A stretch of 64,000 nt of DNA from a virus (IMGVR_UViG_3300031787_009175:1-64000); one strand, 5' to 3'. Numbered from the stretch's first letter, positions 36,513 to 58,319 are shown. Translations and numbers: made by a program. Notes: generated from the sequence alone by a model not told the origin.

Positions 36513-38213
36513 TTAACACTCTTTTCTTAAAGACGCCTCATAGTGTTCAAAACGATTGTGTTCCGTCGGTGTTAAAAGTAACAAAGCTGGTTTTATTTCG
36601 TTTTTTACTGTTTCTTGGAATATGAACGACATCAATGTTTGTTCATAAGGTGATGCAAACTTGGTGTTAATAAAACACTTTCTATTTCCTTCTTTGGACA
36701 TAATCTGTGGCCAATTACAATAAAACACTTCACCTGTCGTATATGGTAATCCTTCGAAAGATTTTATACTTTCGTATCTTGTCTTAGGAGAATTTGGGTC
36801 TAATCCTTGTTGTGGTAGCCTTGGATTGTTTGGCCATTGTAGTTCTCTAAAATGTTGTGGTACATTATACCAAGCCCACTGAGTTCCATTATCTCCGAAA
36901 AATTCAGAATAATTCATTTTGATAAAATCAAAATTTTCTTTTTTGATTAATCCGATTAACTTGTCGTATAAATTCGGAACATATCTTGCAAAACCATTTC
37001 TGCAGTGACCGTATTTGTCTTCGCTGAAAAACATATCGTCTTCGAAAAAGAAATAATATTTGTGATTACTTCCTTCGAAATGTTCCGCAATCCACTGTCT
37101 TCCACCCGTTATTCCTATATTGTCCTTTTTAACATGTTGGAATCCATATGCTTGGCATAATGCCACATATTGTTCTGTTGTTGATAAATCAGTTGAGTTA
37201 TTTAATAAATACTTTTTTGGTTTATCGATAAAGTTTTTATCATAACTTAACATTGAATGTATAAGTGTTTTGAATTGGTTTGGTGAATTGAAACCGATGA
37301 CATATAACGCGACCTCTTCGTCTGTAAACTTAATAGGTTCAGGTTGTAAGTTCAAAATATTTTCCAAAAATAAATTTGGGTCTGATTGTTTCATATATAC
37401 GTCGTTTTTAACATCTTCGAAAAATTTACCTAATAGTCCGTTGGATTCTATAAAGAAGGTATCAATCAATTCAGGATTCAGATAAGTCATAATAGTGAAA
37501 ATAGACTCCTCTGTTCCCATATAACCATTATCTAAAGTATCTTTCATAAGATGATAATAAATGGAATTTAACTCTGCTATCGAATCTTTTTTTCCTCCGA
37601 AAAAACCCGCTCTCGCAACTCTATCAACTCTATTTTTTGAGTATTCGTTCATAGCATTTATTTCAAAACCGTGAATTTCAGAATTGGTTTCATAAGGAAA
37701 ACAAATGAACATAAATTTATTTGTTAGTTTTTGAATTTTTTCCAAAATATTGTCGTGTGTAAAATAACCTGGATGAACCGTATTTGATAAACCGGCATCA
37801 ATCCAAAACATATATTCAGAATCAAACTTGTCCAAAATTTTTGCATCGTGTAATAAGAACATCTTGGACATAACAAGTGGATTGTACATCTCCAATTTTG
37901 CCTGTGTTGACTCAGATAACCAACCGATTTGGTTGTACCACTTTGGATTTGTTCTTATTTTTTGAATTTTATGATAAAAATCATTATTGACGAACCAAGT
38001 TAAGTCTCTTGTGACAAATTGTGTGTTAGTATCGCTTCTTCTTTCGGATACAAATTTTTTCAATTCCTCATCGCCAAAAATTATTAAGTTACAATCTATT
38101 TTTAATAAATCTTCTAATTTATTTAAATAGTGTTGGAAATTTCGTGACCATCCGTCTTGTAGTTGCTCACGACCTATTTCCCATAAACCTGTTACTAATG
38201 TTGTTTTATTCAT
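36513..38213 (-). CDS. Two-domain glycosyltransferase: HtrL/YibB/WlaTC-like domain plus a GT-A-like domain
   Basis: TTLVTGLWEIGR...YMFWIDAG...AGFFGG...GTEESI in the N-terminal domain; NIGITGGRQ...YFFFEDD in the C-terminal domain. Confidence 0.7.
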   Translation of the reverse strand: MNKTTLVTGLWEIGREQLQDGWSRNFQHYLNKLEDLLKIDCNLIIFGDEELKKFVSERRSDTNTQFVTRDLTWFVNNDFYHKIQKIRTNPKWYNQIGWLSESTQAKLEMYNPLVMSKMFLLHDAKILDKFDSEYMFWIDAGLSNTVHPGYFTHDNILEKIQKLTNKFMFICFPYETNSEIHGFEINAMNEYSKNRVDRVARAGFFGGKKDSIAELNSIYYHLMKDTLDNGYMGTEESIFTIMTYLNPELIDTFFIESNGLLGKFFEDVKNDVYMKQSDPNLFLENILNLQPEPIKFTDEEVALYVIGFNSPNQFKTLIHSMLSYDKNFIDKPKKYLLNNSTDLSTTEQYVALCQAYGFQHVKKDNIGITGGRQWIAEHFEGSNHKYYFFFEDDMFFSEDKYGHCRNGFARYVPNLYDKLIGLIKKENFDFIKMNYSEFFGDNGTQWAWYNVPQHFRELQWPNNPRLPQQGLDPNSPKTRYESIKSFEGLPYTTGEVFYCNWPQIMSKEGNRKCFINTKFASPYEQTLMSFIFQETVKNEIKPALLLLTPTEHNRFEHYEASLRKEC

Positions 38214-38214
38214 A

Positions 38215-38895
38215 TTATTCTTTTATTTTGCAAACCCATCCAACGTTTATGAATTCATCAAACATATATTCAGAAAGATTATTTGTTTCTGAACATTCAC
38301 TAATATCAGAATTTTGGATTTCCATCCAATTCCAAAATCTATTTTTCATTTTTTCTTCAAAAAAAATATTATTGGGAGCGTAATCGTGAGCCATAATAAC
38401 GTCCCCTTTCTTAAGCAATTTAGAAATTAATCTGAATTCATTTTTTTTACTCCCTCCATCACATAACACTAAAGTTACGCCTTCACCTTCTATAAAATCG
38501 GACAGTTCTTTTTCGCATGAGTTGTCTTTGAAAGATTGATAATCTTGCGAAAATAAATTTTTACCGACATATCTAATGTCTTCATTTTTTAACCTGTCGA
38601 TTACATAGTCCGGACTACTGACATCATAAGTTCTAATTTCCGTGATTGGGAGTGAATTAAAATTCATTAAGTCCTTAATTATTAATGTAAGCCCACCGTG
38701 AAAAGTTCCTATTTCTAACACTCTTTTGGGTTTTATTTCTTTAATTAATTTGTCAAATCTATAAAGAATGTTAGGATTTTGTTCAATAGCCAACCCTTTG
38801 TAACTAGCATGAGTTATTATTCCATTTCTGAAATTAGTATTAAAATAATCGTTTTCGAAACAATTATAACCTGAGCAGATAAAATGTTCTTTCAT
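38215..38895 (-). CDS. Class I SAM-dependent methyltransferase (CmcI/Methyltransf_24-like)
   Basis: KPKRVLEIGTFHGGLT, LCDGG and GDVIMAHDY motifs. Confidence 0.75.
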   Translation of the reverse strand: MKEHFICSGYNCFENDYFNTNFRNGIITHASYKGLAIEQNPNILYRFDKLIKEIKPKRVLEIGTFHGGLTLIIKDLMNFNSLPITEIRTYDVSSPDYVIDRLKNEDIRYVGKNLFSQDYQSFKDNSCEKELSDFIEGEGVTLVLCDGGSKKNEFRLISKLLKKGDVIMAHDYAPNNIFFEEKMKNRFWNWMEIQNSDISECSETNNLSEYMFDEFINVGWVCKIKE

Positions 38896-38911
38896 TGTTT
38901 ATGTTTTTATG

Positions 38912-39868
38912 TTAGTATAATATATCTAAATTATTTAATAATGAAAATATTATTTTGTATTGGTTTTCAGGTAAACAATTTTCTACAAACCATTTCTTTG
39001 ATTCCGAGATAATATTCTTACACTCTTGTGTATTATAAAAATCTATGAGTTCACAAACTTTACTGTTTATAATTTTTTCCAAATTCTCACCGTTATTATA
39101 AATAATTTTATTTGTCAAATCATCATCCAAAAATTCTATATAATGAATGTTTTTTTCTAATCTATTATGGGTCAATGAATTTAGAGGTTGTCTTAAATTC
39201 AAAACCCCTAACCCAAATAATTCTAAATCCCTATAACAAATATTAGCGGCACCATTTAAACTTAAACCAAATTTGTAATTTGATAATTCTTCATAGTATT
39301 GTTTTTTTTGTCTAAAATCCGAAGGGTTCGTTTTAGATTTTATATCAAAAAATTCATTTTTGGCCAAAAAATTCATAATATTCTGCCTTAACCCGTGATT
39401 TAATCCATTAAAATAAGATTTGGTCAATTTTCTCTCTTGAGGTTTTATATTTTGTATATATTCAACATCACTCCAATTTTCTAAATAATATACTGAAGGT
39501 TCTACTGAAATAATATCTTTGTATTTTTCTATAATACCTTGTGTTAAATTAGAAACACAAGACAACATCACGATGTTGAAATTATTTTGTATTGAGTAAT
39601 TTATTATTTCAGGGGCATAATCATACCAACTATGAACAAACATTTTTTCATTTGATGGGTTGTATATTACCAAATTAAACCAATTGAAAATACTGGTGTA
39701 GTGATTGGATATCTCTTTACCGAATTTTGTTGCTAAATCCCTCAAAGAGATATACTCTAATTCGAATTCAGTATCGAACTCTATTTTTTTATGAAAAAAT
39801 TTATAGAACTCGCTTACATACCAATTATGGTATCCTTGCTCATAGGAAATTATAAGTTTTTTTTTCAT
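38912..39868 (-). CDS. Putative GT-B glycosyltransferase
   Basis: C-terminal YFNG...R...YYEELSNYKFGLSLNGAANICYRDLELFGLG resembles exostosin/CgeB-like GT-B donor-binding motifs; sugar-cluster context. Confidence 0.55.
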   Translation of the reverse strand: MKKKLIISYEQGYHNWYVSEFYKFFHKKIEFDTEFELEYISLRDLATKFGKEISNHYTSIFNWFNLVIYNPSNEKMFVHSWYDYAPEIINYSIQNNFNIVMLSCVSNLTQGIIEKYKDIISVEPSVYYLENWSDVEYIQNIKPQERKLTKSYFNGLNHGLRQNIMNFLAKNEFFDIKSKTNPSDFRQKKQYYEELSNYKFGLSLNGAANICYRDLELFGLGVLNLRQPLNSLTHNRLEKNIHYIEFLDDDLTNKIIYNNGENLEKIINSKVCELIDFYNTQECKNIISESKKWFVENCLPENQYKIIFSLLNNLDILY

Positions 39869-40725
39869 TTCTCTGTTGCATGTATTATACCCCCTCTAGG
39901 ACCTGTTTTATATCCATTAGGTGTGAACACTTTGGACCATATTGGATGGGAATATGATATATCAAAATCTTTGAATCCTGCCAAATAAGCGGAAACCCCA
40001 ATCTCGAAACCCTCGGCCCAAGTCCCATATGTAAAATCTTTATTAACTAAATAATCGTGGAACCATTTCCAATTATCTACCATTTTTTTTAGTTTACCAT
40101 CTTTATTGATAAAGATAAGTAAATATTCAGAAGGTAAACCGGCGCCTGCCCAACCGTGATTCTCAAAATCCTTGATAGTTTTTTTATCAAAATCAATCAT
40201 ATCGTAGTTGTATAATTTGTGCCAAAAAACCGTACAATTCGCATAATCGTATTCCGACTGATTTATTTTTGAAAGACAGTTCGTGTTAAAAGTATTCAAC
40301 AAGTTTCTAACTTTATAATCCGTTCTTGGTCCGAAAAAATCAAAACCATCTGATACCATTTTTTCATAGAAATTTTTAATTTCAGATTCATCCCACCAAT
40401 CAAAGGAGTTGTCGCAATCTGTAAAGATAATCAAACTATTTTCTAGTTCTTTTACGTGGTCTAAGCAGAGATATCTCATATTAAAATTGAAATCATCCGC
40501 GCCTTTATTTGGACCAATTGGTAACCTTACTTTTAAATCATCACGATTCAATTCTTTTATTTTAATACGACTATTTTCACCGAATTTATCTCTTATCAGT
40601 TGTGAACAATCTGTCGTGACATATATATCGATTTTTGAAAGAGATAACACATCCTCTATCATCCTCAATGTGTAATCCTTTGTATAATTTTGACCTAAAC
40701 TTAAGGTAGTTATTGCTATTTCCAT
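39865..40725 (-). CDS. Putative GT-A glycosyltransferase
   Basis: IAITTLSLGQNY, IYVTTD and IIFTDCD (DxD); sugar-cluster context. Confidence 0.5.
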   Translation of the reverse strand: MEIAITTLSLGQNYTKDYTLRMIEDVLSLSKIDIYVTTDCSQLIRDKFGENSRIKIKELNRDDLKVRLPIGPNKGADDFNFNMRYLCLDHVKELENSLIIFTDCDNSFDWWDESEIKNFYEKMVSDGFDFFGPRTDYKVRNLLNTFNTNCLSKINQSEYDYANCTVFWHKLYNYDMIDFDKKTIKDFENHGWAGAGLPSEYLLIFINKDGKLKKMVDNWKWFHDYLVNKDFTYGTWAEGFEIGVSAYLAGFKDFDISYSHPIWSKVFTPNGYKTGPRGGIIHATEK

Positions 40726-40731
40726 AATGTT

Positions 40732-41280
40732 TTATTTTGTTTTTTTGAAGGCACAATAATAGTAATAATGGGTCCCCATATCTATCGGAATTTTTAGTTC
40801 TCTCCCATCTAAATTTATCAATTCTAACATAGGATAATATTCTTTCATAAGATTATCATCCAAATCAGGCTGTAAATGAATTTCATATTTGTTACCAAAA
40901 ACTTCTCCCTGTGGTAAATAATACGGAACTACGACTAACAACTCCTTACATTTATCCTTTAACCTATTCAAAAGTAACACGGCATCCTCTCTAGATAAAT
41001 GTTCTAATATGTCACCCATAATGATAATATCGTAGTATTTGAATTCAAAATCCATAATATTTACGTTGTAAACATTATCATACATCGATTCTAATTCATA
41101 TTCTTGAATATACGGTTTCCATATTTCTACAGCATCAAATTTTTGGAAATGGTTATTAAGTAATTTGAAGTAAAAACCATGTCCGCAACCAACATCTAAT
41201 ATTGATGAATCTTTATCAAAGTTTCTAGTTAAATATTCTTTTACGTCGGGTCCTAAATATCCCCAATTTCCTGGCATCAT
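40732..41280 (-). CDS. Class I SAM-dependent methyltransferase
   Basis: ILDVGCGHG, DAVEI and YDIIIMGDILEHL motifs. Confidence 0.85.
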   Translation of the reverse strand: MMPGNWGYLGPDVKEYLTRNFDKDSSILDVGCGHGFYFKLLNNHFQKFDAVEIWKPYIQEYELESMYDNVYNVNIMDFEFKYYDIIIMGDILEHLSREDAVLLLNRLKDKCKELLVVVPYYLPQGEVFGNKYEIHLQPDLDDNLMKEYYPMLELINLDGRELKIPIDMGTHYYYYCAFKKTK

Positions 41281-41283
41281 TTT

Positions 41284-42156
41284 TTAAAAAAATTTACTAA
41301 GTTTATTAATTATTGGTTTTATGTTTTCAGATTCTAAAATTTCCTTTAATAAAAGTTTAGAATTTACTTCAGCATTCAAAAATTTACCGTGTCTCACAAT
41401 CTCAATATAATCAATTAATAAAAAATCTGAACCAATTTCTCTCTCGTCGGCATGGTAAGTTAGAGTAGGATAATGATAGCAATAGTTTTTGAATCCAAAA
41501 TCGAAAAAATTAATTTTTTTTTCGTAGAATGAGTAGTTATAAAACTCTTGTAACTTCCTTTTTTCTCCTTTAGTATTTTTAATATCAGTATTATCTAACT
41601 GATGTAGTGAAATCATAGGGTTCGAATTTAATAATTTAATCAGAGAATCTTTTTTCCAAATACATGGCTGAACTGAATACATATGTCTAGCGGATTCATC
41701 GAATTCATAGAAACAATCCTTAGGGTAGTTGTATTTTTCATAATCTATTTCGGATTTCTTCCAATTACGTATAAACGCTTCCAAATGTTTTTGGGTGCTG
41801 AATGAAATAAAATCCGCTTTCAAATCCTCACAAATATTTACCAAGTTTTCGAACCTTTCTTTTTTAATTGGCGATTTGACCAAGTAATCATCGCATAACC
41901 AAAAAATATATTCTTCAGGTATTTCACTTAAACATTTAGTCATTGTTGGCCCAAAATGACTACCATCTATAGAAAACGGCGTTCCTGATTCTAAAAAAAT
42001 GACATTTGGATTAACAATCTGATATGGTATCTTGTTTGACACAACATAGATTTTTTTACCTAAAAAAAAACAATTGTCAACAACAAATTTTAATGTTAAT
42101 TCTAGTAATTCAAAATAATTCTCATTAGTAAAAATAATAAAACAAATATCTCTCAT
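41284..42156 (-). CDS. Putative GT-A glycosyltransferase
   Basis: YIFWLCDDY acidic motif and SVQPCIWKK; sugar-cluster context. Confidence 0.55.
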   Translation of the reverse strand: MRDICFIIFTNENYFELLELTLKFVVDNCFFLGKKIYVVSNKIPYQIVNPNVIFLESGTPFSIDGSHFGPTMTKCLSEIPEEYIFWLCDDYLVKSPIKKERFENLVNICEDLKADFISFSTQKHLEAFIRNWKKSEIDYEKYNYPKDCFYEFDESARHMYSVQPCIWKKDSLIKLLNSNPMISLHQLDNTDIKNTKGEKRKLQEFYNYSFYEKKINFFDFGFKNYCYHYPTLTYHADEREIGSDFLLIDYIEIVRHGKFLNAEVNSKLLLKEILESENIKPIINKLSKFF

Positions 42157-42162
42157 AAAATC

Positions 42163-43530
42163 TCAATCCAAACTTAGAAAAGTGTTTAAATCCTCAGGAG
42201 TTCCTAATCCGAACATTTTATTAACATTGAATGTTTTAATTTTTTTTGAGTCTTCAATTGCTTGATTAAATACAGGACAGACATAAAATTCATTATTTAC
42301 TCTTATATTTTTTTCTATCATTTGTTCTGCATATTTAACATAATCTGAACCTTTTTTCCAAAAATAAATACCTACAGTAGCAACATCTGATATCGGTTTT
42401 TTTTCCGCAACCTCAGTCACTAACCCAAATTCATTCAATTTAACAAATGACCATTTTGGGTGAGTCGATTTAAATGTAACTATACCCGCATCACACTCCG
42501 TTTCATTCATTTTATACATAAATTCATTGGAGTCCCACTCGATGAATTGGTCTGAATTAGCAATTATTAATGGATTATCGTTATCAATGAACTTAGTAGC
42601 TAATAATGTAGTACACGCAGCACCTTCAGTTATTCCGTCAACCTCAACAATCTGACACGTTGGGGTTACTAAATTTAACAATGTATCTAAGTTATATTTT
42701 TCTCTGTGTCTTTTTTGAACGATAAAAATATAATTACCGTCAATATTTAAATTATCGACAACTAATTTAATCATTGGCTCACCATTAACGTCAATCAATG
42801 GTTTTGGAAATGTATAACCCGCTCTCTCAAATCTACTTCCGGCTCCGGCCATAGGTATCAATATGTTTAATTTTTTATCTGACCATTTTGGTGATTTAAT
42901 AGTTTTTGAATTATTTAATTCATTTAACTTTTTTATGATTTTATCATAAGTTACATCATCAGCGTTTTTAACTCTTAAAACATTTGAGTAACTTCTATTT
43001 GCGGCCAATAAACCGTAAGGTGAATCCTCAATAATTAATGTTTCTTCGGGTAAACATTCCATCATAGAAATCGCTTTCCAAAAAATTTCAGGATGAGGTT
43101 TACTGTTTTTAACATCTTCATTAGATAATACCAAATCAAAAAATTCAATAATTTCTAGTTTAGATAACACGGTTAATACAGTTTTTCTGACACTGTTACT
43201 GCAACAAACTATTTTATATTTTAATTTTGATAATTCAGATAAACAAAATATTAATTTTTGCGATTTTTCTAAATTAAGAATTTTTTTTAAAGTGTATTTT
43301 TGTTTTGTTTCCCAAACCACATTAAATGATGATGTAGGTAAACCTTTATTAGTGTGTAATAATTTTAATTTTTGATTTGTTTTTAAACCATCATATAAAC
43401 TTAAATGTTCATTCCATTCAATTACATATTGTTCTCCAACATCTTTTAAAGCCTTATTTAAACTTTCATAGTGTATTTCTTTAGCATCTAATAAAACGCC
43501 GTCTAAATCAAAAATTATTGTTTTAATCAT
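42163..43530 (-). CDS. HAD phosphatase fused to a sugar-phosphate nucleotidyltransferase
   Basis: IIFDLDGVL, KPHPE and IIEDS (HAD), then LIPMAGAGSRF..PKPLI, IANSDQ, VAEKK and GLGTPEDL (NTP transferase). Confidence 0.85.
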   Translation of the reverse strand: MIKTIIFDLDGVLLDAKEIHYESLNKALKDVGEQYVIEWNEHLSLYDGLKTNQKLKLLHTNKGLPTSSFNVVWETKQKYTLKKILNLEKSQKLIFCLSELSKLKYKIVCCSNSVRKTVLTVLSKLEIIEFFDLVLSNEDVKNSKPHPEIFWKAISMMECLPEETLIIEDSPYGLLAANRSYSNVLRVKNADDVTYDKIIKKLNELNNSKTIKSPKWSDKKLNILIPMAGAGSRFERAGYTFPKPLIDVNGEPMIKLVVDNLNIDGNYIFIVQKRHREKYNLDTLLNLVTPTCQIVEVDGITEGAACTTLLATKFIDNDNPLIIANSDQFIEWDSNEFMYKMNETECDAGIVTFKSTHPKWSFVKLNEFGLVTEVAEKKPISDVATVGIYFWKKGSDYVKYAEQMIEKNIRVNNEFYVCPVFNQAIEDSKKIKTFNVNKMFGLGTPEDLNTFLSLD

Positions 43531-43531
43531 A

Positions 43532-44227
43532 TTACTTTTGTATATAAGCGGTAGGACATAAAAAATTTATAGATTTTAACTCTAAGTTTTTTTCTTGGAT
43601 AAAACGGTCAACCCCTTTAGATTCACTCCACTTGTGGTAACCATATTCATCAAACACGATAATACCTCCCTTAGTCATATTGCCCCAAAAATTCGATAGT
43701 GTGTCATAAGTTGGTTTTTCTAAATCTAAATCCATATACAATAATGAAATTTTAAAACCAGGATTCTCATTTGAGAACATGTGAGTCGTAACAGATACGT
43801 CACCCTTAATTAAGTCAAATTCGTTAGGTAAAAAACCATCATTTAAAATCTTATTATATAAAATATCTCTATAATTTTCATCATGATTAAAGTTTCGTTC
43901 TTTAAATAAACTATTCATATAAGTTTTATCTAAATCGTTTGTTAAGGTTGATACTAAACCATCATTATCAAAATAATCAAACCCAATTACTTTTTTATGA
44001 GTATTCGGATTAAAGACCCTCTTCAATTTTAAAAAAGAATATAAACCAGTACCTTTAAAAACACCACATTCAACTATATCTCCAGGAATATTTTTAACTT
44101 TATTATATATAAGTGTTCTTGCGATTAATTTATTAAAGATTTTAGTGTCCTCACTTAAAATAAAATTATTAAACGAATCGAACAATTCTTGAGGTGTTTC
44201 AGTTAATTCTAAGTTTTTTATGTTCAT
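43532..44227 (-). CDS. TylF/MycF-family sugar O-methyltransferase
   Basis: PGDIVECGVFKG, IGFDYF, SLLYMDLD and GGIIVFDEY motifs. Confidence 0.85.
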   Translation of the reverse strand: MNIKNLELTETPQELFDSFNNFILSEDTKIFNKLIARTLIYNKVKNIPGDIVECGVFKGTGLYSFLKLKRVFNPNTHKKVIGFDYFDNDGLVSTLTNDLDKTYMNSLFKERNFNHDENYRDILYNKILNDGFLPNEFDLIKGDVSVTTHMFSNENPGFKISLLYMDLDLEKPTYDTLSNFWGNMTKGGIIVFDEYGYHKWSESKGVDRFIQEKNLELKSINFLCPTAYIQK

Positions 44228-44670
44228 ATTTTTTTGTTATATTTTTCTATAACATCACTACATATACCAATACATAACGATGTATTATCATCGTGCAATT
44301 CAGGTAAAACTGATATACTATTTTTAATGGGTTGTTTACCTGGATAAACCCATATGTGGTTATGCGATGTTAGTGTTATAGTATCTGTTTCATGCCAAAA
44401 ATAATTGAACTCATATTGATTTGTTTTAAAAAAAATTAATGAGTTAATATTCTTACAGTGAATCCATAATTTAGATTTTCTATCTTCTAACCAATCAAGA
44501 TTTATATCGTAAAGTGGTTTATCGTGTCCTAAAAATATATTGTCATTAACAACCCACACATCTATCTCAACATCATAACCGGAATAGATTGCTTCATCTA
44601 TGTATTCAGGATGGTTTTCTCTTAATTTATTTTCACCATTTATATTTCCTCTATGAGAAATCAATATCAT
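44224..44670 (-). CDS. Glycerophosphodiester phosphodiesterase-like (PLC-like) protein
   Basis: ISHRGN...EN...GYDVEIDVW...LGHD...LWIHCKN...GICSD. Confidence 0.75.
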   Translation of the reverse strand: MILISHRGNINGENKLRENHPEYIDEAIYSGYDVEIDVWVVNDNIFLGHDKPLYDINLDWLEDRKSKLWIHCKNINSLIFFKTNQYEFNYFWHETDTITLTSHNHIWVYPGKQPIKNSISVLPELHDDNTSLCIGICSDVIEKYNKKI

Positions 44671-45917: not shown

Positions 45918-45989
45918 ATATTATTGTTCTATTTTGATATAAAAATAATACTTGAAAAAAACAAATAAATAGATTATTTAAGTGATTTA

Positions 45990-48900: not shown

Positions 48901-51900
48901 TCTTGGTCTTTGTAAAATACATCAGGGAATCCTGTAATGTTATATGTGTTATTTTCCAACAAAGTTGTGGTACTGTCGGCGGTAAAGGTCAACCCACTCA
49001 CTGTACATGAACTCAAAACGTACGATTCTAAATTCACACTTGTACAACCATTACAATCACTATAACCTGTCCAAGCAATTGTTGCACCTGTTGTTTCAAC
49101 ACTACCCCCACCTCTACTATAACACAAATCATTATAAACAATCACAGGTTGGAAATATATAGAATATCCCGCATCATAAATAGGGATTATATCTCCACCA
49201 TCACAACAATTTGTGTAATCCCTAACTCCAAACCCACACGGGTTACCTAGATTGTTTAACGCTACCGTACAATTGATATAGTCGTAATTTATAAAACAGT
49301 TAGTACCGAAGTTACCTGTTGAAGCACTTACCATAGAATATGGTAGACTGTCATCAGGATTAATAACAACATTACCCGCCACGAAGTTTTCAGGAACAAT
49401 TCCAAATGTGACTAAAGTTGGAGTACCGTATGGGTCATCGCAACAAGATATAAAATCATAAGCGGTAAATCCACACTCACACTTGTTTTGTTGTTGACAC
49501 TGAAGACATTCTCCAGTTTGGAAATCCGGAATTTCATAACTGAAAACACCTGATTGACTATTATCAAATGCAACCAATTTAAAACATTTTGTGCCTGTTA
49601 TGGTCGGGTCTTCATATTGTACAATATCACCAATATCCCAACCTGTATTATTTACATTGAAATAATATGTTAGTGTTTCGGTGCAACAATCTGTAAATCT
49701 TGCTCTTGTACAATATTGATTTAGATAATTAGACTCGCATGTTGAGCAATCACTTAAGAATGAACTAACAGGGAACGGTACTTGTGGGTTTACAGACCCA
49801 ATGGTTGAACTTCCATTGAAATATAAACAAACTCCGACGGCCGTACCTCCACCTAATCCTCCCGTACCTTGAGTTGTTGTAGTATTTCCTATTTGTAAAT
49901 CATAAGAGAATTGAGTACCATATTGTGTTGTTTGTCCCGTCGGCACGACATTAACAACAAATTGTGTATCACCTGAACAACAATCTAAAAATATCATAGG
50001 ACAACCAACAGTTTGTACACATTCCCAACAAGTTGTATAAGCGGTAGTTGTATAGCTTTCACTATAAGTGCCCTCCTCAGGCAGATACTGATAAGCACTA
50101 TAACATTGATTATTTGTTGTATCGGTGACTACATCTCCGACAGACCAAGAGTGTGTGAAAGTATCTAATAAATAATATTTTACATCGGTTTGAGTACAAC
50201 AATCTCTGAATTCCCAAACTTGGAATTGAGGTGCGGGGGTTGGGGTCAAAGTCGGTGTCTGAGTAACCGTTACAGTTGGTGTTACGGTTGGGGTTTGAGT
50301 ATTTGTCGGTGTTTGAGTATTTGTAGGAGTTTGTGTGTTAGTAGGTGTGACGGTTGTGGTTGGCGTTTGTGTCTTGGTTGGTGTAGGAGTTGGAGCTGGT
50401 GTTTTAGTTGGAGTTTGGCTTACACAATTTATTGTACCATAAATGTCCAATTGGCATGCATCACAATCGTTATAGACTGATGATAATGCAGGTGGATTAG
50501 TTAATGTGTAGATTGTAGTTGGATTGGATTCTATTATCGTTGCACAACCAACAAACAAATCCGAAACAATATATAACGTTTCTCCTATTTCATAGTTATA
50601 TGGTATGGATGCAAATTCATCAGCAAAAATGAACTTTATTGAATTACAACAAGAGCTGAAACATCTAGTAACTTGGGCGGAACATAATTCACAATTATCA
50701 AATGTAGCACCTGTAATATAACTGCTTATGACAGATGGTGATGAATCAATAATATCTACCAAAGTCCAACAACCAGATAAATTAGACAATCCTACAACAT
50801 CACCTAAGTTTATCGGAAGTGGTTCATCTACAAATACACAATTATCCGTAGGTTCGTTATATGAAATAATTCTATTGAATGAATTTGTGATATTTGTTGT
50901 CGAGAACCCTGTTACAGTTGGGTCAATCTGCCAATTAAAGTTTTTCAATCCTACACCATCTTGTAATGATGGAGTCAGGTTTTGATAAACCGTACTAGCC
51001 GTAAACGCTGTAATAGGATTTATTGTTTCCAAAGTAACAAATGTCCAATTAGGTGACATAACAGGATTTATAAACGGCCATACACCACCATTGAAATTGT
51101 ATTTGTTACCAAAATATGTCGATGTATTTGTCTCGCCTTCAATTATAGCCAAAGAAGTTAAAATGAATTGATATCCAATAGGTAGGTTATATGGTTGAGG
51201 TAATATTCCTGCAAAAGAAGGTTCAGGATATAAAAAGTTTTCTATTTCCCCTAAAGATACATATTTCAAATCATACCAAACATTCAAATATGCCTCATAA
51301 TCATCTAACACATTAGTTAAATTGAAATTAAAATTATCCGGTTGATTAGTTGTATTACCTGATGTATTATATCCACTAGTGTTGGTAGTATAAGCGTTTT
51401 GAGCCTCATTTATGATATTAATAGTGATATAGTTAGTATCTCTGAATGAATCTACGTTTCCACCATAGGTATATATCGGTGATGAATTTACCGTGTCAGA
51501 TGAGAAAGAATTTCTTATACCACTCGAATATTGGTTTTTTGTCCCATCGAAATTTAAACCTCTGTTGATATTATAGTTCACTGTACCAACACCCCCATCA
51601 ACAACATAACAGTTCAAAGGATTACTTATAAATCCTGATGACAATGTTCCTCCCAATAAAGACCCCAAATACGGATAGCAAGACCACCACATCCAATTCA
51701 TACCGTATACCACCATTTCGTATAAATTTCCAGTGTAACCGCTATTGTTTACTAAATCCGAATACCAAGACCTAATATTTTGAGATGCCCCACTTAATGT
51801 TGACGGTGAGTACGAAGGACTTGCATCATAAAAAACATAAATGTTTTTTGTTAAATCGGTTGTCGCCGAACACTGACACATTTGATAAATTGGATTGAAA

Positions 51901-54900
51901 GAACATTCACCTTGTGAGTTTGTACAACCACTACAACTTGCAAATGTAGAACCTGTATTTGAATTTAGGTAATATAAATTTTCAGCCGGTTGATTTACAA
52001 TTCTGAAACACCCTTGTAATCCATTTCCATCAAAATAATACGTAAGATTTTGGTCAAGACCATAAATTGTATTATATGTCATACCAAAACCACTGAAATT
52101 GTATGTGGTACCTGATAGTAAATCACAACAAGCGCTGAATGATTTTTGATTCGATGTTGGTGTTACGGTAGGTGTTGGGGTTGATGTTGGTGTTGCAGGT
52201 GGAGTTGGTGGAGGTGTTTCAGTTGGTGTCGGTGTTACGGTATTTGTCGGTGTTTGTGTGTTTGTTGGTGTCGGAGTAGGTGTAGGACAAACACCCCCTA
52301 CGCAAGCACCAATTAATTCAGCAGTCCCAGAACCGAAACTAGTTATACTCCTTACACAAAAATTACCTGAAACTCCTGGTGCGACCGATTGAGATACACC
52401 ATTACAATCAACATATACTAATGCTGTCGAAGTCCTACCAATACTAACTGTTATAAAATAACAATCACAAACAGGGGTTGTTGGTGTCACAGTCGGAGTC
52501 ACAGTACTCGTAGGTGTGGGTGTTGGTGTTGGGCATGGATTTGTTGATGTACAATCCTCACAAGAAGATTGTAACAAAATACTTTGATATTGAAAGTTTT
52601 CAGGTATGCCGATTTTATTCACACATCTAACGCATCCACTGAATCCTATCGTTTCTACGTAATAATAGTTACCAACTAATGGGGCAAATGCAAAAGGTAT
52701 ATCAAAAATTCTTATTTGTCTGTTATCACAACAACCAGTAAATAATCCAACTACGGGTGGAAATTGTGTAATAGTCGGAGTTGGCGTCAATGTTGGTGTT
52801 TGCGTGACAGTATTTGTTGGTGTGGTAGTATTGGTAGGTGTAACAGTATTGGTAGGTGTAACAGTATTAGTTGGAGTTACAGTATTGGTCGGCGTTTGAG
52901 TTGGTGTTTGTGTTGATGTGGGACTTGGACTTTGACCAGGTGTAGGGGTAGGTGTTGGGGTCGTAGTTGAAGTAGGTGTTGTTGTAGGTGTTATAGTTGG
53001 AGTCGATGTTGGACTCGGACTAATGTCAACACAAGGAGCTAGTATTCCTGAATTATTAGACTGGCAAGTAAAACAGTCGTCCTCTAAAATGTAACCCACA
53101 ATTGAGTAATTCAGATTAGGGGAAACGTTGGACGTGATTGTCACACAAGCATAGTAAGGATTGCCACCCACGGTAAACTCCATCAAGTAAAAATCTCCAA
53201 CATCACCAGCAGTAAACAAAGCTCCTGTTTGATAAATTTTACCATTTCCACAACAATCAACAGCCGCAATTTGTAGAGGAGTTGTTGGTGTAGGAGTTAT
53301 AGTTGGAGTTTGTGTTTTAGTAGGTGTTACAGTTTGAGTTTGAGTATTCGTTGGTGTATTAGTTGGTGTTTGGGTTGTAGTATTTGTAGGTGTTTGTGTG
53401 TTGGTTGGTGTATTTGTAGGCGTCTGCGTTGAAGTATTTGTAGGAGTGTTTGTTGGTGTTTGTGTCGAAGTGTTTGTAGGGGTAGTAGTAGGGGTATTAG
53501 TAGGCGTTTGCGTGTTTGTAGGTGTTTGAGTTGTTGTGTTCGTAGGAGTATTTGTAGGAGTATTTGTAGGGGTATTAGTAGGTGTTTGAGTATTTGTTGG
53601 TGTATTTGTTGATGTTTGGGTTTGAGTGTTAGTTGGTGTATTAGTTGGTGTTTGTGTATTGGTTGGCGTGACAGTGTTAGTCGGAGTTTGTGTGTTAGTC
53701 GGAGTTTGTGTGTTAGTCGGAGTTTGTGTTGTCGTAGAAGTTGGAGTGTTAGTTGGAGTTTGAGTAGATGTTGGCGACGGGGTTGCACCTGGTGTTGGTG
53801 TGTTAGTGGGAGTTTGAGTATTAGTTGGAGTTTGTGTGTTAGTCGGAGTAATAGTATTTGTGGGTGTAACAGTATTAGTTGGCGTTTGTGTGTTAGTCGG
53901 AGTAACAGTATTCGTAGGTGTTTGAGTATTCGTAGGTGTTTGAGTATTGGTAGGCGTTTGAGTATTCGTAGGAGTCAGCGTATTCGTTGGCGTTTTAGTA
54001 TTGGTAGGTGTTTGGGTATTAGTTGGTGTAACCGTATTTGTTGGCGTTTGAGTATTTGTAGGTGTTTGAGTATTCGTAGATGTTACAGTATTAGTTGGGG
54101 TATTAGTAGGTGTTTGAGTTGTGGTATTAGTTGGGGTATTAGTAGGTGTTTGAGTTGTGGTATTAGTAGGGGTGTTAGTTGGGGAAGGGGAAACTGCTGG
54201 GGTAGGAGTTTGTGTATTAGTAGGGGTTATTGTCGGAGTATTGGTTGGGGTGACAGTGGATGTATTTGTCGGTGTCTGTGTATTTGTCGGGGTGATTGTA
54301 TTAGTTGGCGTTTGTGTATTTGTCGGGGTGATTGTATTAGTTGGGGTTTGTGTATTGGTTGGTGTTGTAGTGGGAGTTTGTGTCTTAGTGCTAGTAGGTG
54401 TAACAGTATTAGTCGGGGTATTAGTTGGTGTTGTTGTGTTCGTTGGTGTGTTAGTCGGTGTCTCAGTATTCGTTGGTGTGTTAGTCGGTGTCTCAGTATT
54501 AGTTGGTGTGTTGGTTGTTGTCTGAGTTGGTGTAGGTGTTGGAGTTTCACCTGGTGTTGGAGTTACAGTAGGTGTAACTGTTGGAGTCACGGTTGATGTT
54601 GGTGTTTTTGACGGGAATGGTGTTTTTGTTGGAGTTCTAGTTGGGGTACTTGTTGTGGTTTCAGTTGGAGTATTTGTTGGAGTGAGAGTTATGGTCGAAG
54701 TATTAGTTGATGTTATTGTATTGGTAGGTGTTATAGTGTTAGTTGGTGTCGATGTATTAGTTGGTGTATTAGTTGGTGTTTCTGTATTTGTAGAAGTATT
54801 TGTCGGAGTGTTAGTTGGTGTCTCTGTATTTGTCGGGGTATTAGTCGGCGTATTGGTTGGTGTGACAGTATTTGTCGGTGTTGGAGAAGGGGTTGGACAA

Positions 54901-55859
54901 GTAGCACTACCTGTCGTTGCACTTAAACATTCTGTACATCCTGTATATATAACTACTTTCTGTAAGTTGTAATAGAAATTTGTAAACTCCCTTGCAACCA
55001 CAGAACATCCACTAAATGCGTCAGTTTCGAAATAATAAACTTTTGTGGGGTCCACCTTATCTATATAACCAACATTATCTATCAGGTTGAATATATATCC
55101 CCCACAACAAGAGCTAAATGTTAGAGGTAATAAAGTTGAGGTTGGAGTTACCGTTGGTGTTGGTGTTGTAGTAGGTGTAGGACATACACTAGAACCTGTC
55201 TCGGCCGACAAACATAAATCACAAGTATTATATTCAGTTAGAGCGGTGTAAGTATATGTTGCACTCGGTCTACCAAACCCAACTGTTGCACAAGTACTAA
55301 AACCTGAGTCAGTTTCAACATAGTATGTTTTAGTTTGGTCTAACACATCCTCTATTTTACCGTTAGATACAGCAAAAACAAAATTACCACAACAAGATAT
55401 AAAAGATAATGTTAAATTTGTTGGTGTTATTGTAGGAGTTGGTGTTTGGGTTGGTGTTGTTGTTGGCGCTGGCGTTCTTGTCAGTGTTGGTGTTGCAGTA
55501 ATTGAAGGTGTAACTGTTGGAGTAACTGTATTTGTGGGGGTTACTGTTGGAGTATTGGATGTTGGTGTAACTGTAGGGGTTACAGATGGAGTTACGGTTG
55601 GTGTTGGTGTAAATGTGGGGGTTGGTGTTTGTGATATTGTACAATCTATCACTTGGAATGTTTCGCAACCAACCCCATCGACAATTTTCAAAATCAAAGG
55701 ATTCAACCCCTCGAACTCTGCCGGTATAGGGTCTTCTATTGTCGGTGGAATTGTTGTTAGAATTTCAGACAATAGGTAACAGGTTGTGAGAGTTAAATCA
55801 CAAATACTTATACTATATGGTGGGGTTCCCGTTACATTATTAACCTGAATTATATTCAT
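45990..55859 (-). CDS. Giant mucin-like virion/fibre protein (Thr-Pro blocks, Cys-rich modules, vWA-like domain, Delta-60 repeats)
   Basis: 3289 aa ORF with about 8 TP blocks, repeated CC...C...CxxC modules, [11 protein letters not shown] (DxSxS) and [12 protein letters not shown]...[13 protein letters not shown] repeats. No signal peptide; TATTTAT lies 4 nt upstream. Confidence 0.75.
53280..54900 (-). repeat. Coding tandem repeats ([16 protein letters not shown]; 12-, 18- and 36-bp periodicity)
   Basis: Examples: GTGTTAGTCGGAGTTTGT three times near 53674-53727, and a 36-bp unit duplicated near 54088-54160. Most other units differ at synonymous positions. Confidence 0.9.
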
Positions 55860-55931
55860 ACCGATAAATACACCTTTTACTGAATTTAATAATAACCAAA
55901 CATATTATGAATTAAATATTTACTTTGTCAT

Positions 55932-56342
55932 TTAACACGTTGGTGTTGATGAAGGTGTTCTTGTTACTGAAGGAGTCATTGTTGGGGTTTTAGTTTGTGT
56001 AGGCGTTTGTGTAGGCGTTTTAGTTGGGCAAGGATTTATTGTTGGTGTAACGGTCACAGTCGGTGTTGGGGTCGGAGTTTGGGTTCTTGTAACCGATGGG
56101 GTAGGTGTTGGTGTTGGAGTTGGCATCGGCACCGAAATTGTATAAGAACAATCCTTGTTAACTATATAAATCGAATAGTCACCATAAATATATTGAGGTG
56201 GTGATAAAGTATTGGAACTAAAAACGTAAGGTAAAACTTGTTCACCAAGATAAAATGAAATTGTTTTTCCATACGGAGTGAACATAATCTGAGCAGTTTC
56301 CCCTGAAAAATTTACACTTTCAATCGTTATAACTTGTTGCAT
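55932..56342 (-). CDS. Small protein with a C-terminal Thr-Pro mucin-like tail
   Basis: Beta-rich N-terminal domain, then [19 protein letters not shown]...TPTC. Confidence 0.7.
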
Positions 56343-56344
56343 TA

Positions 56345-58267
56345 TTATGGTAGATTATAGGTTATATCGTTTGTATCACAAACAGGGTAACACTTTGGAC
56401 AATCAGGATTAAACATATCAAACTTATCTTTTAACAAAAGGAAATTATGTTTGACCTCTGGTGCGGTTAATGGACTAACATACATTCTGAATTGACTTAT
56501 ACCACCCTCGAATGTTCCTGCAAAATTTTGTTCAATCAGTATGTTAGTTGTTAATGACGATAAAGATGTTGCACTCAAAACGTTATTAGGAAATAACTCA
56601 GGGTCCTGTATATAAGAATTTGTCAATCCTGTTGGACATGCTGAAAAAACTAAATTCTCTCTTAGTCCTTGCGTCCCACCTCCCCAAGATATATTAAAAG
56701 GAACTCCAATTTGTTTTTCTTTGTCAGCATTTAGAGCTCTTGGTATTATCTCTTCTACATCTTCAATGGTGTAAAATATTCTTCCATTTACGTAGATTTT
56801 CAATCTACCGTTTCTGTAGTGTTTGTCTATCAACCATTTTTCATTTAACTGAACTATTTCAATTTGCTCAGGTGTTAGATTTTGATGTGTCACAGGTGGA
56901 CTTATCAAATAAACTGAATTGTTTGCCAACGAATCCAAGTAAACCAATTTTGTGATATCACCTAATCCTCCTCTAAAATATAAATCACAAGTATCAAGCC
57001 ATGTGTAACGTTCCCAAACCACATCAACCAAAAACCAATGTTCAGAGGTTGTATAAGCAGAATTTACACCCAAACAATAATCATATATTCCATTTGGAGA
57101 ACAGTAATTATCTATTGTATATCCCGTCGAATAAGTAATACCACTTGTTTCACAAGAACCCGTTGTTTCACAGTCGCCAGTAAATCTCAAAATTCTCACA
57201 CCAATTTTAGGATTCCCATCTTCACCACACAATCTCAGAGAAATTGCGTTTGACATCGAATCATAGATTGGGTCTTTATCAGGAATATTTGATATCGTTC
57301 CTGAATTACATCCGCACCCACAACCTACTGCGTGAGAAACCGTAATTCCTGTTGGTTCATATACGTCAACACATCTTGAATTTGTGACACCAGTATTTGA
57401 ACAAGCACAAGTTTTTAAACAATCTGCTAATGATTCCGTAACTCTTGTATATCCTGTGTCAGATGATGGAACACCGTTTGCGTGATGACCGTACTTGTTT
57501 TCGGCTCTTGTTCCCATATAAAAGAACATATTTCTATTATCAGGATAAATTTCATTTAATGTTGTTTGGCCTGTCGTTGCACTAAATTCGTTTGTCAAAC
57601 GAGGTTTAATAATCATTTCCACGGACCATCCTTTATTCATTCTTGATGGAAATAGGTCATAATCATAACCAAATAACTTGTAAAACCCTTGGTAAAATCC
57701 ACCATATAACTCTTGGTAATAACCAATGTAGGGGTCTATCTTTGATACTATTTCATATATTGTTTGGGCCGATATTCCTGAAAACCTAACATTTGGAGAT
57801 GATGTATATCCTGTGACTTGAGTTAGTTTTAATCTTCTATCGAAATTATATCTACCAAACTTATCTGAATCCGAAAATAATCCTTGAGTTATTGTGATGG
57901 TTTGTCCGGTCATTCCCGTTACCAAACCATTATCAATACCTGTTAAACCTATGTCACACAAAGTTTCCGAACTAAAACAAGTTAAATCCAATCCATTAGG
58001 ATTATAATAATTTTCAGAAATCAGAACATTGTTGAAATTATATTCACCATAAGATAAACTCAACCTTTGATTTGACGACAAACTATTCAAATCAAAATAA
58101 AATGGCAGTCGATTACCGTATGTTTGGGCAATCAAATAAGGTGAAAAAACTACTTCTTGATTGAAATCCAACTCGTCGGAAGCTAATGATATATCATTCA
58201 AATCGTAGAAATGACTATCTAAATAAAACTTCTTGAAAACATACTGATTAATGTTTTGTTGTGCCAT
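56345..58267 (-). CDS. Cys-rich structural protein with a LamG/concanavalin-like fold
   Basis: [28 protein letters not shown] and [20 protein letters not shown] are LamG-like. The start is set to MAQQ at 58267. Confidence 0.6.
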
Positions 58268-58319
58268 TTTATTTTTTATAGATAAATACACAACATCAGA
58301 GTATTTATTGTAAAAAACT

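Follow-up and report, generated by a model that had tools for sequence, protein, structure and literature searches.

With moderate confidence we propose that the locus described here, part of the genome of an uncultured jumbo phage from fresh water, serves a cytoplasmic O-glycosylation of Thr-Pro (TP) tracts on lectin-tipped phage proteins, and that the glycans would be extended by a hypervariable enzyme cassette; acceptor, sugar and virion location are putative components of this proposal. Its core is a glycosyltransferase of family GT60 encoded directly downstream of TP-rich proteins, and the linkage between GT60 and TP-rich proteins is beyond chance.

Organization of the locus

The window, i.e. 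the whole analysed stretch of 64,000 nucleotides (IMGVR_UViG_3300031787_009175:1-64000), contains a tightly packed 13-gene operon on the minus strand that runs from position 58291 to 36513. It comprises a 640/648-aa protein, two Thr-Pro proteins of 136 and 3289 aa, the GT60 enzyme and then nine further genes, and all 13 products are predicted to be soluble-like. An ORF check located the two Thr-Pro-rich ORFs, the GT60 gene and the nine genes following it on the minus strand, at the coordinates of an earlier note. The giant ORF and the GT60 gene are separated by 72 nt, in which (as that note had held) no convincing terminator is seen, and the intergenic gaps of the nine genes 3' of GT60 range from -4 to 16 nt.

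The first gene (56345..58291, minus strand as all features below) yields 648 aa if read from GTG and 640 aa from the ATG at 58267. Its product has a variable N-terminal half and a conserved C-terminal domain (about residues 304–645), and in some relatives a TP-rich extension is fused into the same ORF. Searches against Pfam and PHROG profiles gave no match and its fold model is unusable (pLDDT 37); a LamG/ConA-like nature is a lead only. Neither this protein nor the giant protein nor the C-terminal domain of the latter matches known structural families or cultured phages. The lectin-type heads found on the TP ORFs of relatives fit appendages.

The second gene (55932..56342) encodes a 136-aa protein with a short N-terminal domain (phrog_15511, E 3.4e-8) and a TP-rich tail; it contains 23.5% Thr and 16.2% Pro, with 73 residues in TP tracts. 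The third (45990..55859) encodes the modular 3289-aa protein, the candidate glycosylation substrate, with 21.5% Thr, 9.3% Pro and 188 TP dipeptides. Defining a TP tract in this protein as a stretch with at least 60% T+P+S, about 12 linkers of the TP(N/Q) type are found, which comprise 1,052 residues including 463 Thr (44% of the tract residues) and 209 prolines. Long Pro/Thr/Ser-rich, repeat-like tracts as in mucin-like (PTS-domain) proteins thus make up 1,052 of its 3,289 residues. It also contains a DUF5122 beta-propeller, at least six copies of a six-Cys module of approximately 80 aa and large unassigned globular parts. The Thr-Pro richness reported earlier for both proteins was borne out by their composition, which lies far above background, and they are the only TP-rich ORFs in the 94.8-kb contig, located directly 5' of GT60. 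Adjacency to GT60 and co-occurrence with it suggest that the TP tracts may be densely O-glycosylated.

The GT60 enzyme

The 416-aa product of 44667..45917 matches PF11397 with E 7.7e-69 and 233.3 bits (cut-off 21), covering model positions 2–44 and 94–350 in two stretches, and phrog_24687 with E 5.9e-171. All three motifs on which the original assignment had been based are present, i.e. IASYRD (residue 7), IDSH (91) and FHGEE (201), and residues D92, H94, E204, E205 and H229 do not vary among 37 diverse homologs (35–51% identity). When the structure model (pLDDT 96.2) is compared with the PDB, ranks 1–11 are all occupied by polypeptide GalNAc-transferases (Foldseek E about 1e-9, TM about 0.5), so that the GT60 identity stands on both profile and fold. 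As modelled, the enzyme is a GT-A catalytic domain with the DxH...H metal-site residues (D92-x-H94, H229), followed by a C-terminal beta domain of about 90 aa which extends beyond the Pfam model and is common to bacterial and phage homologs. A ricin-type lectin domain, the trait that separates GT60 from GT27 (PMC8724618), is absent by Pfam search. Characterised GT60s are alpha-GlcNAc-transferases on protein Thr/Ser or hydroxyproline (Hyp), one of them being cytosolic (PMC8724618). The phage enzyme is therefore a candidate initiating polypeptide O-glycosyltransferase, its donor sugar specificity being unreadable from sequence. GT60-like folds are found also in Megaviridae and Pandoravirus.

Since the GT60 family includes a branch that transfers to Hyp (PMC8724618), the same system might place its sugar on hydroxyproline instead of threonine, comparable to Gnt1 on Skp1 or to plant Hyp-glycoproteins. 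The 209 prolines within the TP tracts would offer sites, and the genome of one relative, G001, has two domains of the 2OG-Fe(II) oxygenase type. However, a P4H-type oxygenase (PF13640) was not found in the phage's own contig, in relative G002 or in the complete GT60-positive genomes G006 and G020, and we regard this variant as very improbable.

The downstream cassette

Behind GT60 follows a 148-aa protein (44224..44670) that had been described as GDPD-like; this description could not be upheld, as it shares with GDPD enzymes an N-terminal S-H-R-G motif alone and HMMs yield only phrog_34507 of unknown function, and the phosphodiester decoration proposed along with it would be speculative. The three proposed methyltransferases were all recovered by profile searches, namely a TylF/macrocin-O-methyltransferase-like sugar O-methyltransferase of 231 aa (43532..44227; PF05711, E 2.2e-10), a class-I SAM methyltransferase of 182 aa (40732..41280) and a CmcI/rhamnosyl-O-methyltransferase-like enzyme of 226 aa (38215..38895). 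The same applies to the 455-aa fusion (42163..43530) of a beta-phosphoglucomutase-family HAD domain (TIGR02009, 8.9e-28) with an RmlA-like sugar-1-phosphate nucleotidylyltransferase (TIGR01208, 4e-13), which probably supplies an NDP-sugar. Three additional glycosyltransferases had been claimed: for the 318-aa protein (38912..39868), which gave no match in HMM searches, a weak GT-B lead exists, with Glyco_trans_1_2 / RXYLT1_C / GT47 as structural neighbours in the atlas (TM 0.66–0.72), but the 290-aa (41284..42156) and 286-aa (39865..40725) proteins match nothing in Pfam, NCBIfam, PHROGs or PDB sequences, the latter showing three DxD motifs only. At the distal end a 566-aa protein (36513..38213) carries the expected HtrL_YibB N-terminal domain, and its supposed second transferase domain has just a weak match to phrog_842 (E 5e-4).

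An HtrL/YibB-like gene is conserved at this distal position in 74 of 80 related loci. The cassette families of these loci all concern sugar chemistry, GT25, GT10 and GT11 among them, and the cassette is exchanged wholesale among related phages. Sugar chemistry and modification in the cytoplasm, as originally suggested, fit the families assigned and the soluble appearance of all 13 products.

Two other targets of such enzymes have to be considered here. The GT60/HtrL cassette could remodel host LPS, O-antigen or capsule, e.g. for a superinfection block, with the TP genes being mere neighbours in a variable region. Glycosyltransferase clusters of jumbo phages were so interpreted by Iyer et al. 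(PMC7824862), the HtrL/YibB family description names the LPS-core locus of E. coli, GT25, GT10 and GT11 are common in LPS/LOS loci, and strain-variable cassettes would also suit surface-antigen diversification. Yet no characterised GT60 uses a lipid or polysaccharide acceptor (PMC8724618), the cluster proteins are all soluble-like, and five genomes, of which three are complete, encode neither priming enzymes (PF02397, PF00953) nor a Wzx flippase (PF01943), although host enzymes could substitute. Moreover, the tracking of TP proteins with GT60 across diverged phages and bacteria would be left unexplained, and we give remodelling of the host surface only a small chance. Glycosylation of phage DNA (hypermodified bases) against restriction, a common role of phage glycosyltransferases (PMC13326640), would accord with the phrog_842 match, which is a T-even HMC-glucosyltransferase family, and with a nearby dUTPase/dCTP-deaminase-like gene. 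But the thymidylate-synthase-family hydroxymethylase (PF00303) is absent from the contig (G000) and from relatives G001 (98% complete) and G002 (82%) while control genomes are positive, the cassette contains no base-modifying enzymes, and fold and family of GT60 point to peptide acceptors; the probability of DNA as target appears close to negligible.

Association of GT60 with Thr-Pro proteins

The synteny set comprised 43 dereplicated related loci, 39 of which enter the upstream counts. At least 100 TP-tract residues are located upstream of GT60 on the same strand in 33 of these 39, and in 26 of 39 no more than 200 nt lie between the end of a TP ORF and GT60. TP-tract density around GT60 amounts to 61 residues/kb on the upstream side and 7/kb on the downstream side, and the opposite strand has none; the background elsewhere in a 98%-complete relative is about 4/kb. 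Exceptions are one locus with no TP-rich ORF in the sequence around GT60 (L081), two with weak tracts of about 50 TP residues (L016, L045) and two with none upstream and 224–234 residues downstream (L070, L082). In a complete relative, four further places besides the GT60 locus have TP-rich ORFs. The Cys module of the giant protein occurs in only 4 of 80 related loci and the other TP ORFs carry Laminin_G_3 (10/53), legume-lectin, LRR, propeller or P-domain modules, i.e. the TP property persists while the globular domains turn over.

The pairing is also found from the opposite direction. Of 18 large viral contigs chosen only by TP repeats 12 encode GT60, whereas none of the 7 polymerase-motif controls does (Fisher p 0.0036), a comparison with a small control set, non-random samples of first-listed rows and many phylogenetically related positives. 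In four of the 12 positive contigs GT60 is only 29–40% identical to the enzyme studied here. The blind draw of TP-repeat loci from IMG/VR to which these 18 contigs trace back gave GT60 within about 10 kb in 6 of 80. TP-tailed proteins adjoin GT60 in several bacterial phyla as well: 5 of 24 bacterial TP ORFs near GT60 directly abut it (about 4% expected, p 0.002), among them a LamG + TP protein of Chthoniobacter and, in three members of the Gemmatimonadaceae, proteins with PqqD and a TP tail. For the phage itself a Bacteroidota host is hinted at by the closest cellular matches only. Independent distribution of GT60 and TP-rich proteins, which by the earlier note would have counted against its proposal, is contradicted by synteny in relatives, by co-occurrence within diverged phage genomes and by adjacency in bacteria.

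These data bear on a further explanation, according to which GT60 modifies other phage proteins, or host proteins as part of takeover, the TP tracts are unglycosylated spacers and the adjacency is the inherited synteny of one clade. TP linkers are indeed widespread without GT60 nearby (74 of the 80 drawn loci), TP genes are missing near GT60 at some loci, phages of the XacN1 type separate the two, and the synteny was seen mostly within a single broad clade (62–90% GT60 identity). On the other hand, the association outlasts complete turnover of the domains of the TP proteins and recurs with GT60s of 29–40% identity and in several bacterial phyla with the TP-tailed gene directly abutting, and we consider this explanation unlikely. 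TP tracts also serve as ordinary flexible linkers.

Relation to known glycosylation systems

With the protist GT60s, i.e. the mucin-type initiators of Dictyostelium and Trypanosoma cruzi and Gnt1, the phage enzyme has the PF11397 family and the DxH plus downstream His in common. It is predicted to be soluble like Gnt1, which is cytosolic and acts on Skp1 hydroxyproline, and resembles the T. cruzi and Dictyostelium enzymes in adjoining Thr-rich mucin-like (in the phage putative) acceptors. In contrast with them it is encoded by a tailed phage, lacks a Golgi anchor, has the additional C-terminal beta domain and is putative in its activity, donor and acceptor. Animal GT27 enzymes (GalNAc-T2, T4 and others) are the nearest solved folds with the same GT-A DxH architecture and acceptors of a like PTS-rich (in the phage putative) kind, but identity is only 10–13%, the phage protein does not belong to their family by sequence (phmmer yields no PDB match) and the phage enzyme has no ricin-type lectin domain.

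The islands of serine-rich repeat proteins (SRRPs) in Gram-positive bacteria likewise combine a giant repeat protein, a cytoplasmic initiating O-HexNAc transferase (GtfA/GtfB) and strain-variable extenders (PMC6973325, PMC5207161, PMC6291802). The phage-borne locus differs in having Thr-Pro instead of Ser-rich repeats and GT60 (GT-A) instead of the GT4 pair GtfA/B, and its cluster contains neither GT4 nor Sec components such as accessory SecA2/Y2; the analogy is one of logic only.

What is proposed here is a virus-encoded glycosylation of the virus's own proteins, on presumed TP acceptors. Precedents include mycobacteriophages Che8 and Rita, whose glycosyltransferases are reported to decorate their own structural proteins (Freeman et al. 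2023, via PMC11256854); there the targets are capsid and tail-tube proteins of small siphoviruses, the GT families are different ones and mucin-like tracts are absent. In Megavirinae fibrils and the chlorovirus capsid, viral sugar-nucleotide synthesis and glycosyltransferases from clade-specific variable clusters coat the surface fibrils (PMC10117803, PMC9614988), but these are giant viruses of eukaryotes and the acceptors are GMC-oxidoreductase fibrils or capsid protein and not TP-repeat proteins. Full-length GT60 homologs of 44–47% identity occur in cultured jumbo myoviruses, namely Xanthomonas phage XacN1 (ORF334, 47%), Xoo-sp13, CM1 and RAS14. XacN1 virions hold at least two glycoproteins (PMC5852040). 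In phages of this type an operon that includes a carbamoyltransferase begins with GT60, and TP stretches occur only here and there; the giant ORF next to GT60 in XacN1 and RAS14, which is baseplate-adjacent, is not TP-rich (T 8–9%).

Proposed pathway and its meaning

In the preferred reading, O-glycosylation of the TP tracts, a late-type phage operon would make binding-type globular domains strung along long Thr-Pro tracts. Soluble GT60 would add the first sugar, while still inside the host cell, onto tract threonine hydroxyls in the cytoplasm, by family precedent perhaps alpha-GlcNAc from UDP-GlcNAc. With an NDP-sugar supplied by the PGM/nucleotidyltransferase fusion, the glycan may be extended and O-methylated by the HtrL-like protein together with at least one further transferase and the three methyltransferases. 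We infer the order of these steps, as well as acceptor, sugar and virion location. Because related phages exchange the cassette as a whole, the glycan should differ among strains. Most likely the TP products are displayed on the particle as exposed appendages, or else they are set free at lysis; the virion fibre and bottle-brush coat of the earlier note, with the uses suggested there, would be speculative.

More broadly, the chances appear evenly balanced that a mucin-type O-glycosylation pathway exists in abundant freshwater jumbo phages and, independently, in bacteria of several phyla and in large phages of other kinds, in which Thr glycans started by GT60 on lectin-headed Thr-Pro stalks and finished by the cassette would form a strain-variable glycocalyx of the particle. 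If true, the eukaryotic mucin-initiating GT60/GT27 enzymes would have a large reservoir of functional equivalents among prokaryotes and viruses.

Phage setting and operon layout

The viral contig (IMG/VR), of which the window forms the initial 64 kb, comprises 94,783 bp at a CheckV completeness of 32%, which implies a jumbo phage of approximately 300 kb. Tail sheath, baseplate hub, family-B DNA polymerase and helicase are all encoded in the window, its GC content is about 33%, and no cultured relative was detected when the replication module was used as a nucleotide query. On the minus strand 13 ORFs run from 58291 to 36513 with intergenic gaps of -4 to 72 nt. No convincing terminator was seen between the giant ORF of the Thr-Pro-rich (TP-rich) protein and the gene of the GT60 glycosyltransferase, and a scan for sigma-70 promoters gave fewer sites than shuffled sequences and is hence uninformative at this locus. 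For the first gene product, here called g648 (56345..58291, minus strand), the start at ATG 58267 (640 aa) is likelier than GTG 58291 (648 aa) because the latter leaves only 28 nt to the divergent gene at 58320 and the atlas record starts at residue 9. A second glycosyltransferase (61016-62278, plus strand; phrog_7162 at E 3e-43 and a weak GT1 match) lies outside the operon on the opposite strand and adjoins an exonuclease and a dUTPase-like gene.

The GT60 enzyme

By every sequence and fold test applied, the 416-aa product of 44667..45917 (minus strand) is classified as a GT60 member, as the earlier note had proposed from three motifs (IASYRD, IDSH and FHGEE) that are all present. PF11397 (E 7.7e-69) and phrog_24687 (E 5.9e-171) are its family matches, and the 11 best PDB matches of its AlphaFold model (pLDDT 96.2) are without exception polypeptide GalNAc-transferases, i.e. 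the initiators of animal mucin-type O-glycosylation. A search of the sequence itself against PDB chains returned chance matches only, hence no solved structure. Residues D92, H94, E204, E205 and H229 are invariant in an alignment with 37 homologs (35-51% identity), which corresponds to the DxH...H arrangement expected for this GT-A lineage. The protein looks soluble. Beyond the Pfam model it carries an extra C-terminal beta domain of about 90 residues (residues ~320-416, window 44667-44960) that is conserved in phage and bacterial homologs of ~416 aa, with P394 and W408 nearly invariant; this domain could bind substrate or glycan, as a counterpart of the ricin domain of GT27.

Mucin-type initiation by GT60 and GT27 is regarded as a eukaryotic trait. 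Beyond eukaryotes the GT60 family comprises 4,626 clusters at 50% identity, and the close relatives of the phage clade alone form more than 7,000 clusters at 90% identity. At least 554 loci were found in bacterial genomes from many phyla, and GT60-type folds occur also in other uncultured Caudovirales, in Megaviridae and in Pandoravirus. Some family representatives (P0123, P0124, P0125, P0132) reach 1,600-2,500 aa with up to four GT60-like stretches. The closest cellular matches (58-69%, loci L115-L122) come from Saprospiraceae, Lewinellaceae and Bacteroidia MAGs; one of them, the 230-kb contig L117 with a GC content of 0.34, may be a binned jumbo phage. Judged by such sequences there is a hint of a host among Saprospirales/Bacteroidota. 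The literature describes GT60 as the protist pp-alpha-GlcNAc-transferases with which Dictyostelium and T. cruzi initiate their mucin-type glycans, and the family includes a cytosolic enzyme acting on a hydroxyproline of Skp1 (PMC8724618).

Thr-Pro-rich proteins of the operon

In the giant protein of 3289 aa (45990..55859, minus strand) Thr makes up 21.5% and Pro 9.3% of the residues, and the TP dipeptide occurs 188 times. Between its TP(N/Q) linkers, about 12 in number and totalling ~1,052 residues, lie six-cysteine modules, a DUF5122 propeller and large globular parts that have no assignment. The modules of ~80 aa (pattern CC...C...CxxC...C, covered by phrog_15511) are present in at least six copies at residues 150-229, 245-324, 861-946, 1035-1112, 1239-1315 and 1732-1813, in a protein that is made in the reducing cytoplasm. 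They are rare, being found in 4 of 80 related loci and also within TP proteins of the loci L223 and L232, and were rejected as a feature common to all substrates on account of the former count. The second, 136-aa protein (55932..56342, minus strand) has a TP-rich tail.

For g648 a LamG-like character is a lead; a fold predicted on an alignment of 19 sequences could not be used (pLDDT 36.8). With g648 and the C-terminal 569 aa of the giant protein, tblastn found no match among 50,697 GenBank phages. One homolog of g648 (L056:658-2595) contains a single in-frame stop, for which sequencing error, pseudogene or recoding are possible.

Association of GT60 with Thr-Pro tracts in phages

On its own contig, 94.8 kb in length, the phage encodes only two TP-rich ORFs, and both precede GT60. 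As relatives, 80 IMG/VR loci with a GT60 of 77-90% identity were sampled and dereplicated to 43 clusters, 39 of them with enough upstream sequence. In 33 of these 39 at least 100 TP-tract residues, an arbitrary threshold, are encoded upstream of GT60 on the same strand, and in 26 the end of the TP ORF and GT60 lie less than 200 nt apart. Counted per kb, TP-tract residues around GT60 number 61 upstream, 7 downstream and 0 on the opposite strand, compared with ~4 in the rest of a 98%-complete relative. The conserved frame reads g648, variable TP-rich ORFs, GT60, variable cassette and HtrL, and a single ORF of some phages joins a TP tract to the conserved C-terminal domain of g648. Conservation attaches to the TP tract and not to the protein that carries it. 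Laminin_G_3 is found in 10 of 53 TP ORFs of the relatives, others being legume-lectin-like or containing LRR, propeller, P-domain or Fib_succ_major; all these domains are of binding type.

When IMG/VR was scanned blindly for TP repeats by a DNA pattern, 80 loci emerged, in 6 of which a GT60 was fetched within ~10 kb. These loci lead to 18 contigs with a length of 100 kb or more, and PF11397 was encoded somewhere in 12 of the 18, compared with 0 of 7 large control contigs chosen by a DNA-polymerase motif, which also lacked the TP pattern (0/7); Fisher's exact test yields p = 0.0036 for samples that are the first rows of the scan and not random, with a small control (n=7) and many interrelated positives. 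In eight of the 12 positive contigs the GT60 (62-78% identity) places them in the one broad clade of this phage, and in four the GT60 is only 29-40% identical. GT60 and TP proteins are not distributed independently: relatives show synteny, diverged phages co-occurrence within the genome and bacteria adjoining genes; an independent distribution would have told against the reading of the earlier note. A search of the literature found no paper in which Thr-Pro proteins of phages are described together with GT60.

Exceptions exist. No TP-rich ORF was present within the sequence fetched around GT60 of L081, the loci L016 and L045 show weak tracts only, and L070 and L082 have no TP upstream of GT60 and 224-234 TP residues downstream. 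The majority of viral loci with TP repeats lack a GT60 in their vicinity. The remaining serious rival explanation takes the tracts as plain, unglycosylated spacers and assigns other protein targets to GT60. Attachment of the sugar to hydroxyproline within the tracts is disfavoured, since a P4H-type oxygenase occurs in one of five genomes only, namely in a 295-kb relative with two 2OG-Fe(II) oxygenase (PF13640) domains near its end (G001, C1:288908-291681), and is absent from the four others checked. As main reading we favour, with moderate probability, that the phage directs O-glycosylation of these TP tracts.

Cultured jumbo phages and bacteria

The cultured jumbo phages XacN1 and RAS14 possess GT60 homologs. 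ORF334 of XacN1 is 47% identical to the GT60 of the contig, and in both phages (L003/L005; XacN1 216551-223508) GT60 heads an operon of four to five genes including a 765-aa carbamoyltransferase, convergent with a block of baseplate wedge genes, a 3,313-aa ORF and a GT9. Their giant ORFs were rejected as TP-rich counterparts (8-9% Thr); TP stretches of XacN1 occur elsewhere, including the C-terminus of the giant ORF near GT60. XacN1 virions contain at least two glycoproteins that were ascribed by the authors to the two glycosyltransferases of the phage (PMC5852040), which gives a hint from experiments independent of the sequence analysis.

Among the TP-rich ORFs within 10 kb of bacterial GT60 genes, where high-GC DNA may yield off-frame artefacts, 5 of 24 abut GT60 against ~4% expected (p = 0.002). 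In three Gemmatimonadaceae (L124:8510-9235, L129:9230-9955, L127:9068-9889; plus strand) the gene abutting GT60 upstream combines a PqqD domain of the RiPP-recognition type with a TAT-like/TM segment and a TP-repeat tail, with a frame GC3 of 0.81-0.87; these proteins may represent a separate bacterial class of GT60 substrates. One member of the Acidimicrobiaceae and one alphaproteobacterium encode, just downstream of GT60, a (TP)n stretch behind a twin-arginine-like leader, and in Chthoniobacter a LamG and TP protein lies 1.3 kb upstream. Small proteins with such a leader and a long (TP)n are encoded near GT60 at L153:11563-12243, L172:11548-12129, L184:6880-7476 and L190:6819-7457; those of Halieaceae have an additional C-terminal hydrophobic anchor and a basic tail.

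The downstream cassette

The genes downstream of GT60 had been called in the earlier note as well, and its three methyltransferases, the fusion of a beta-phosphoglucomutase-type HAD with an RmlA-like nucleotidyltransferase and the HtrL/YibB domain (566-aa protein, 36513..38213, minus strand) were recovered. Of three further glycosyltransferases claimed there, the 318-aa protein retains a GT-B-type lead (atlas), and those of 286 and 290 aa have no assignment. The GDPD-like call for a 148-aa protein was not upheld, an SHRG motif being its sole support. The 286-, 290- and 148-aa proteins and the C-terminal half of HtrL gave nothing in Pfam (E up to 10) or NCBIfam, the 286-aa, 290-aa and HtrL C-terminal sequences nothing significant against PDB sequences, and the weak relatives of these unassigned proteins in other loci are likewise without assignment.

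In 38 related loci the interval between GT60 and HtrL measures 1.6 to 10 kb and holds 165 ORFs of 94 families, and every recognisable family belongs to sugar chemistry. There are transferases (GT25, GT10, GT11, GT2, PLOD-type GT and RXYLT1-like domains), modifiers (FkbM and other methyltransferases, DegT aminotransferases, GNATs and carbamoyltransferase) and, for sugar supply, UDP-galactopyranose mutase. The cassette is a swappable, putatively glycan-finishing module between two conserved enzymes.

Two rival readings concern other acceptors. Glycosylation of phage DNA would lack its prerequisite, as a thymidylate-synthase-type hydroxymethylase is encoded neither by the contig nor by two near-complete relatives. 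Remodelling of host polysaccharide, the way in which glycosyltransferase clusters of jumbo phages have been read in print (PMC7824862), fits the HtrL, GT25 and fucosyltransferase-type families, but priming transferases and flippase are absent from five genomes (three of them complete), all cluster products look soluble, and the association with TP tracts is left unexplained.

Relation to known systems and significance

In function, the O-glycosylation locus proposed here comes closest to the islands for serine-rich-repeat adhesins in Gram-positive bacteria, with their giant repeat protein, cytoplasmic initiating O-HexNAc transferase and strain-variable extenders. The phage locus is not a member of this kind because repeats, initiator family and export system all differ. 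Phage enzymes that glycosylate phage particles are known from few cases, namely mycobacteriophages and, as a hint, XacN1. Viral precedents are the clade-specific fibril glycosylation clusters of Megavirinae and the capsid glycosylation of mycobacteriophages (cited in PMC11256854).

The observation of the earlier note is confirmed and its interpretation supported in part. The gene content, the identity of GT60 and its non-random, recurrent association with TP tracts stand; what serves as acceptor, which sugar is added, that the glycan is extended and methylated, and that the proteins sit in the virion are inferences. The locus would be a fresh form of virus-encoded glycosylation of the virus's own proteins. 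GT60 and Thr-Pro proteins are paired repeatedly: in a phage clade of very high abundance, in phages diverged from it, and among bacteria. If the tracts are glycosylated, phage appendages would bear a widespread, strain-variable sugar coat that could influence how the phages of lakes adsorb, withstand proteases and grazing, and aggregate; on the same condition the system would offer simple soluble enzymes for producing mucin-like glycopeptides in bacteria.
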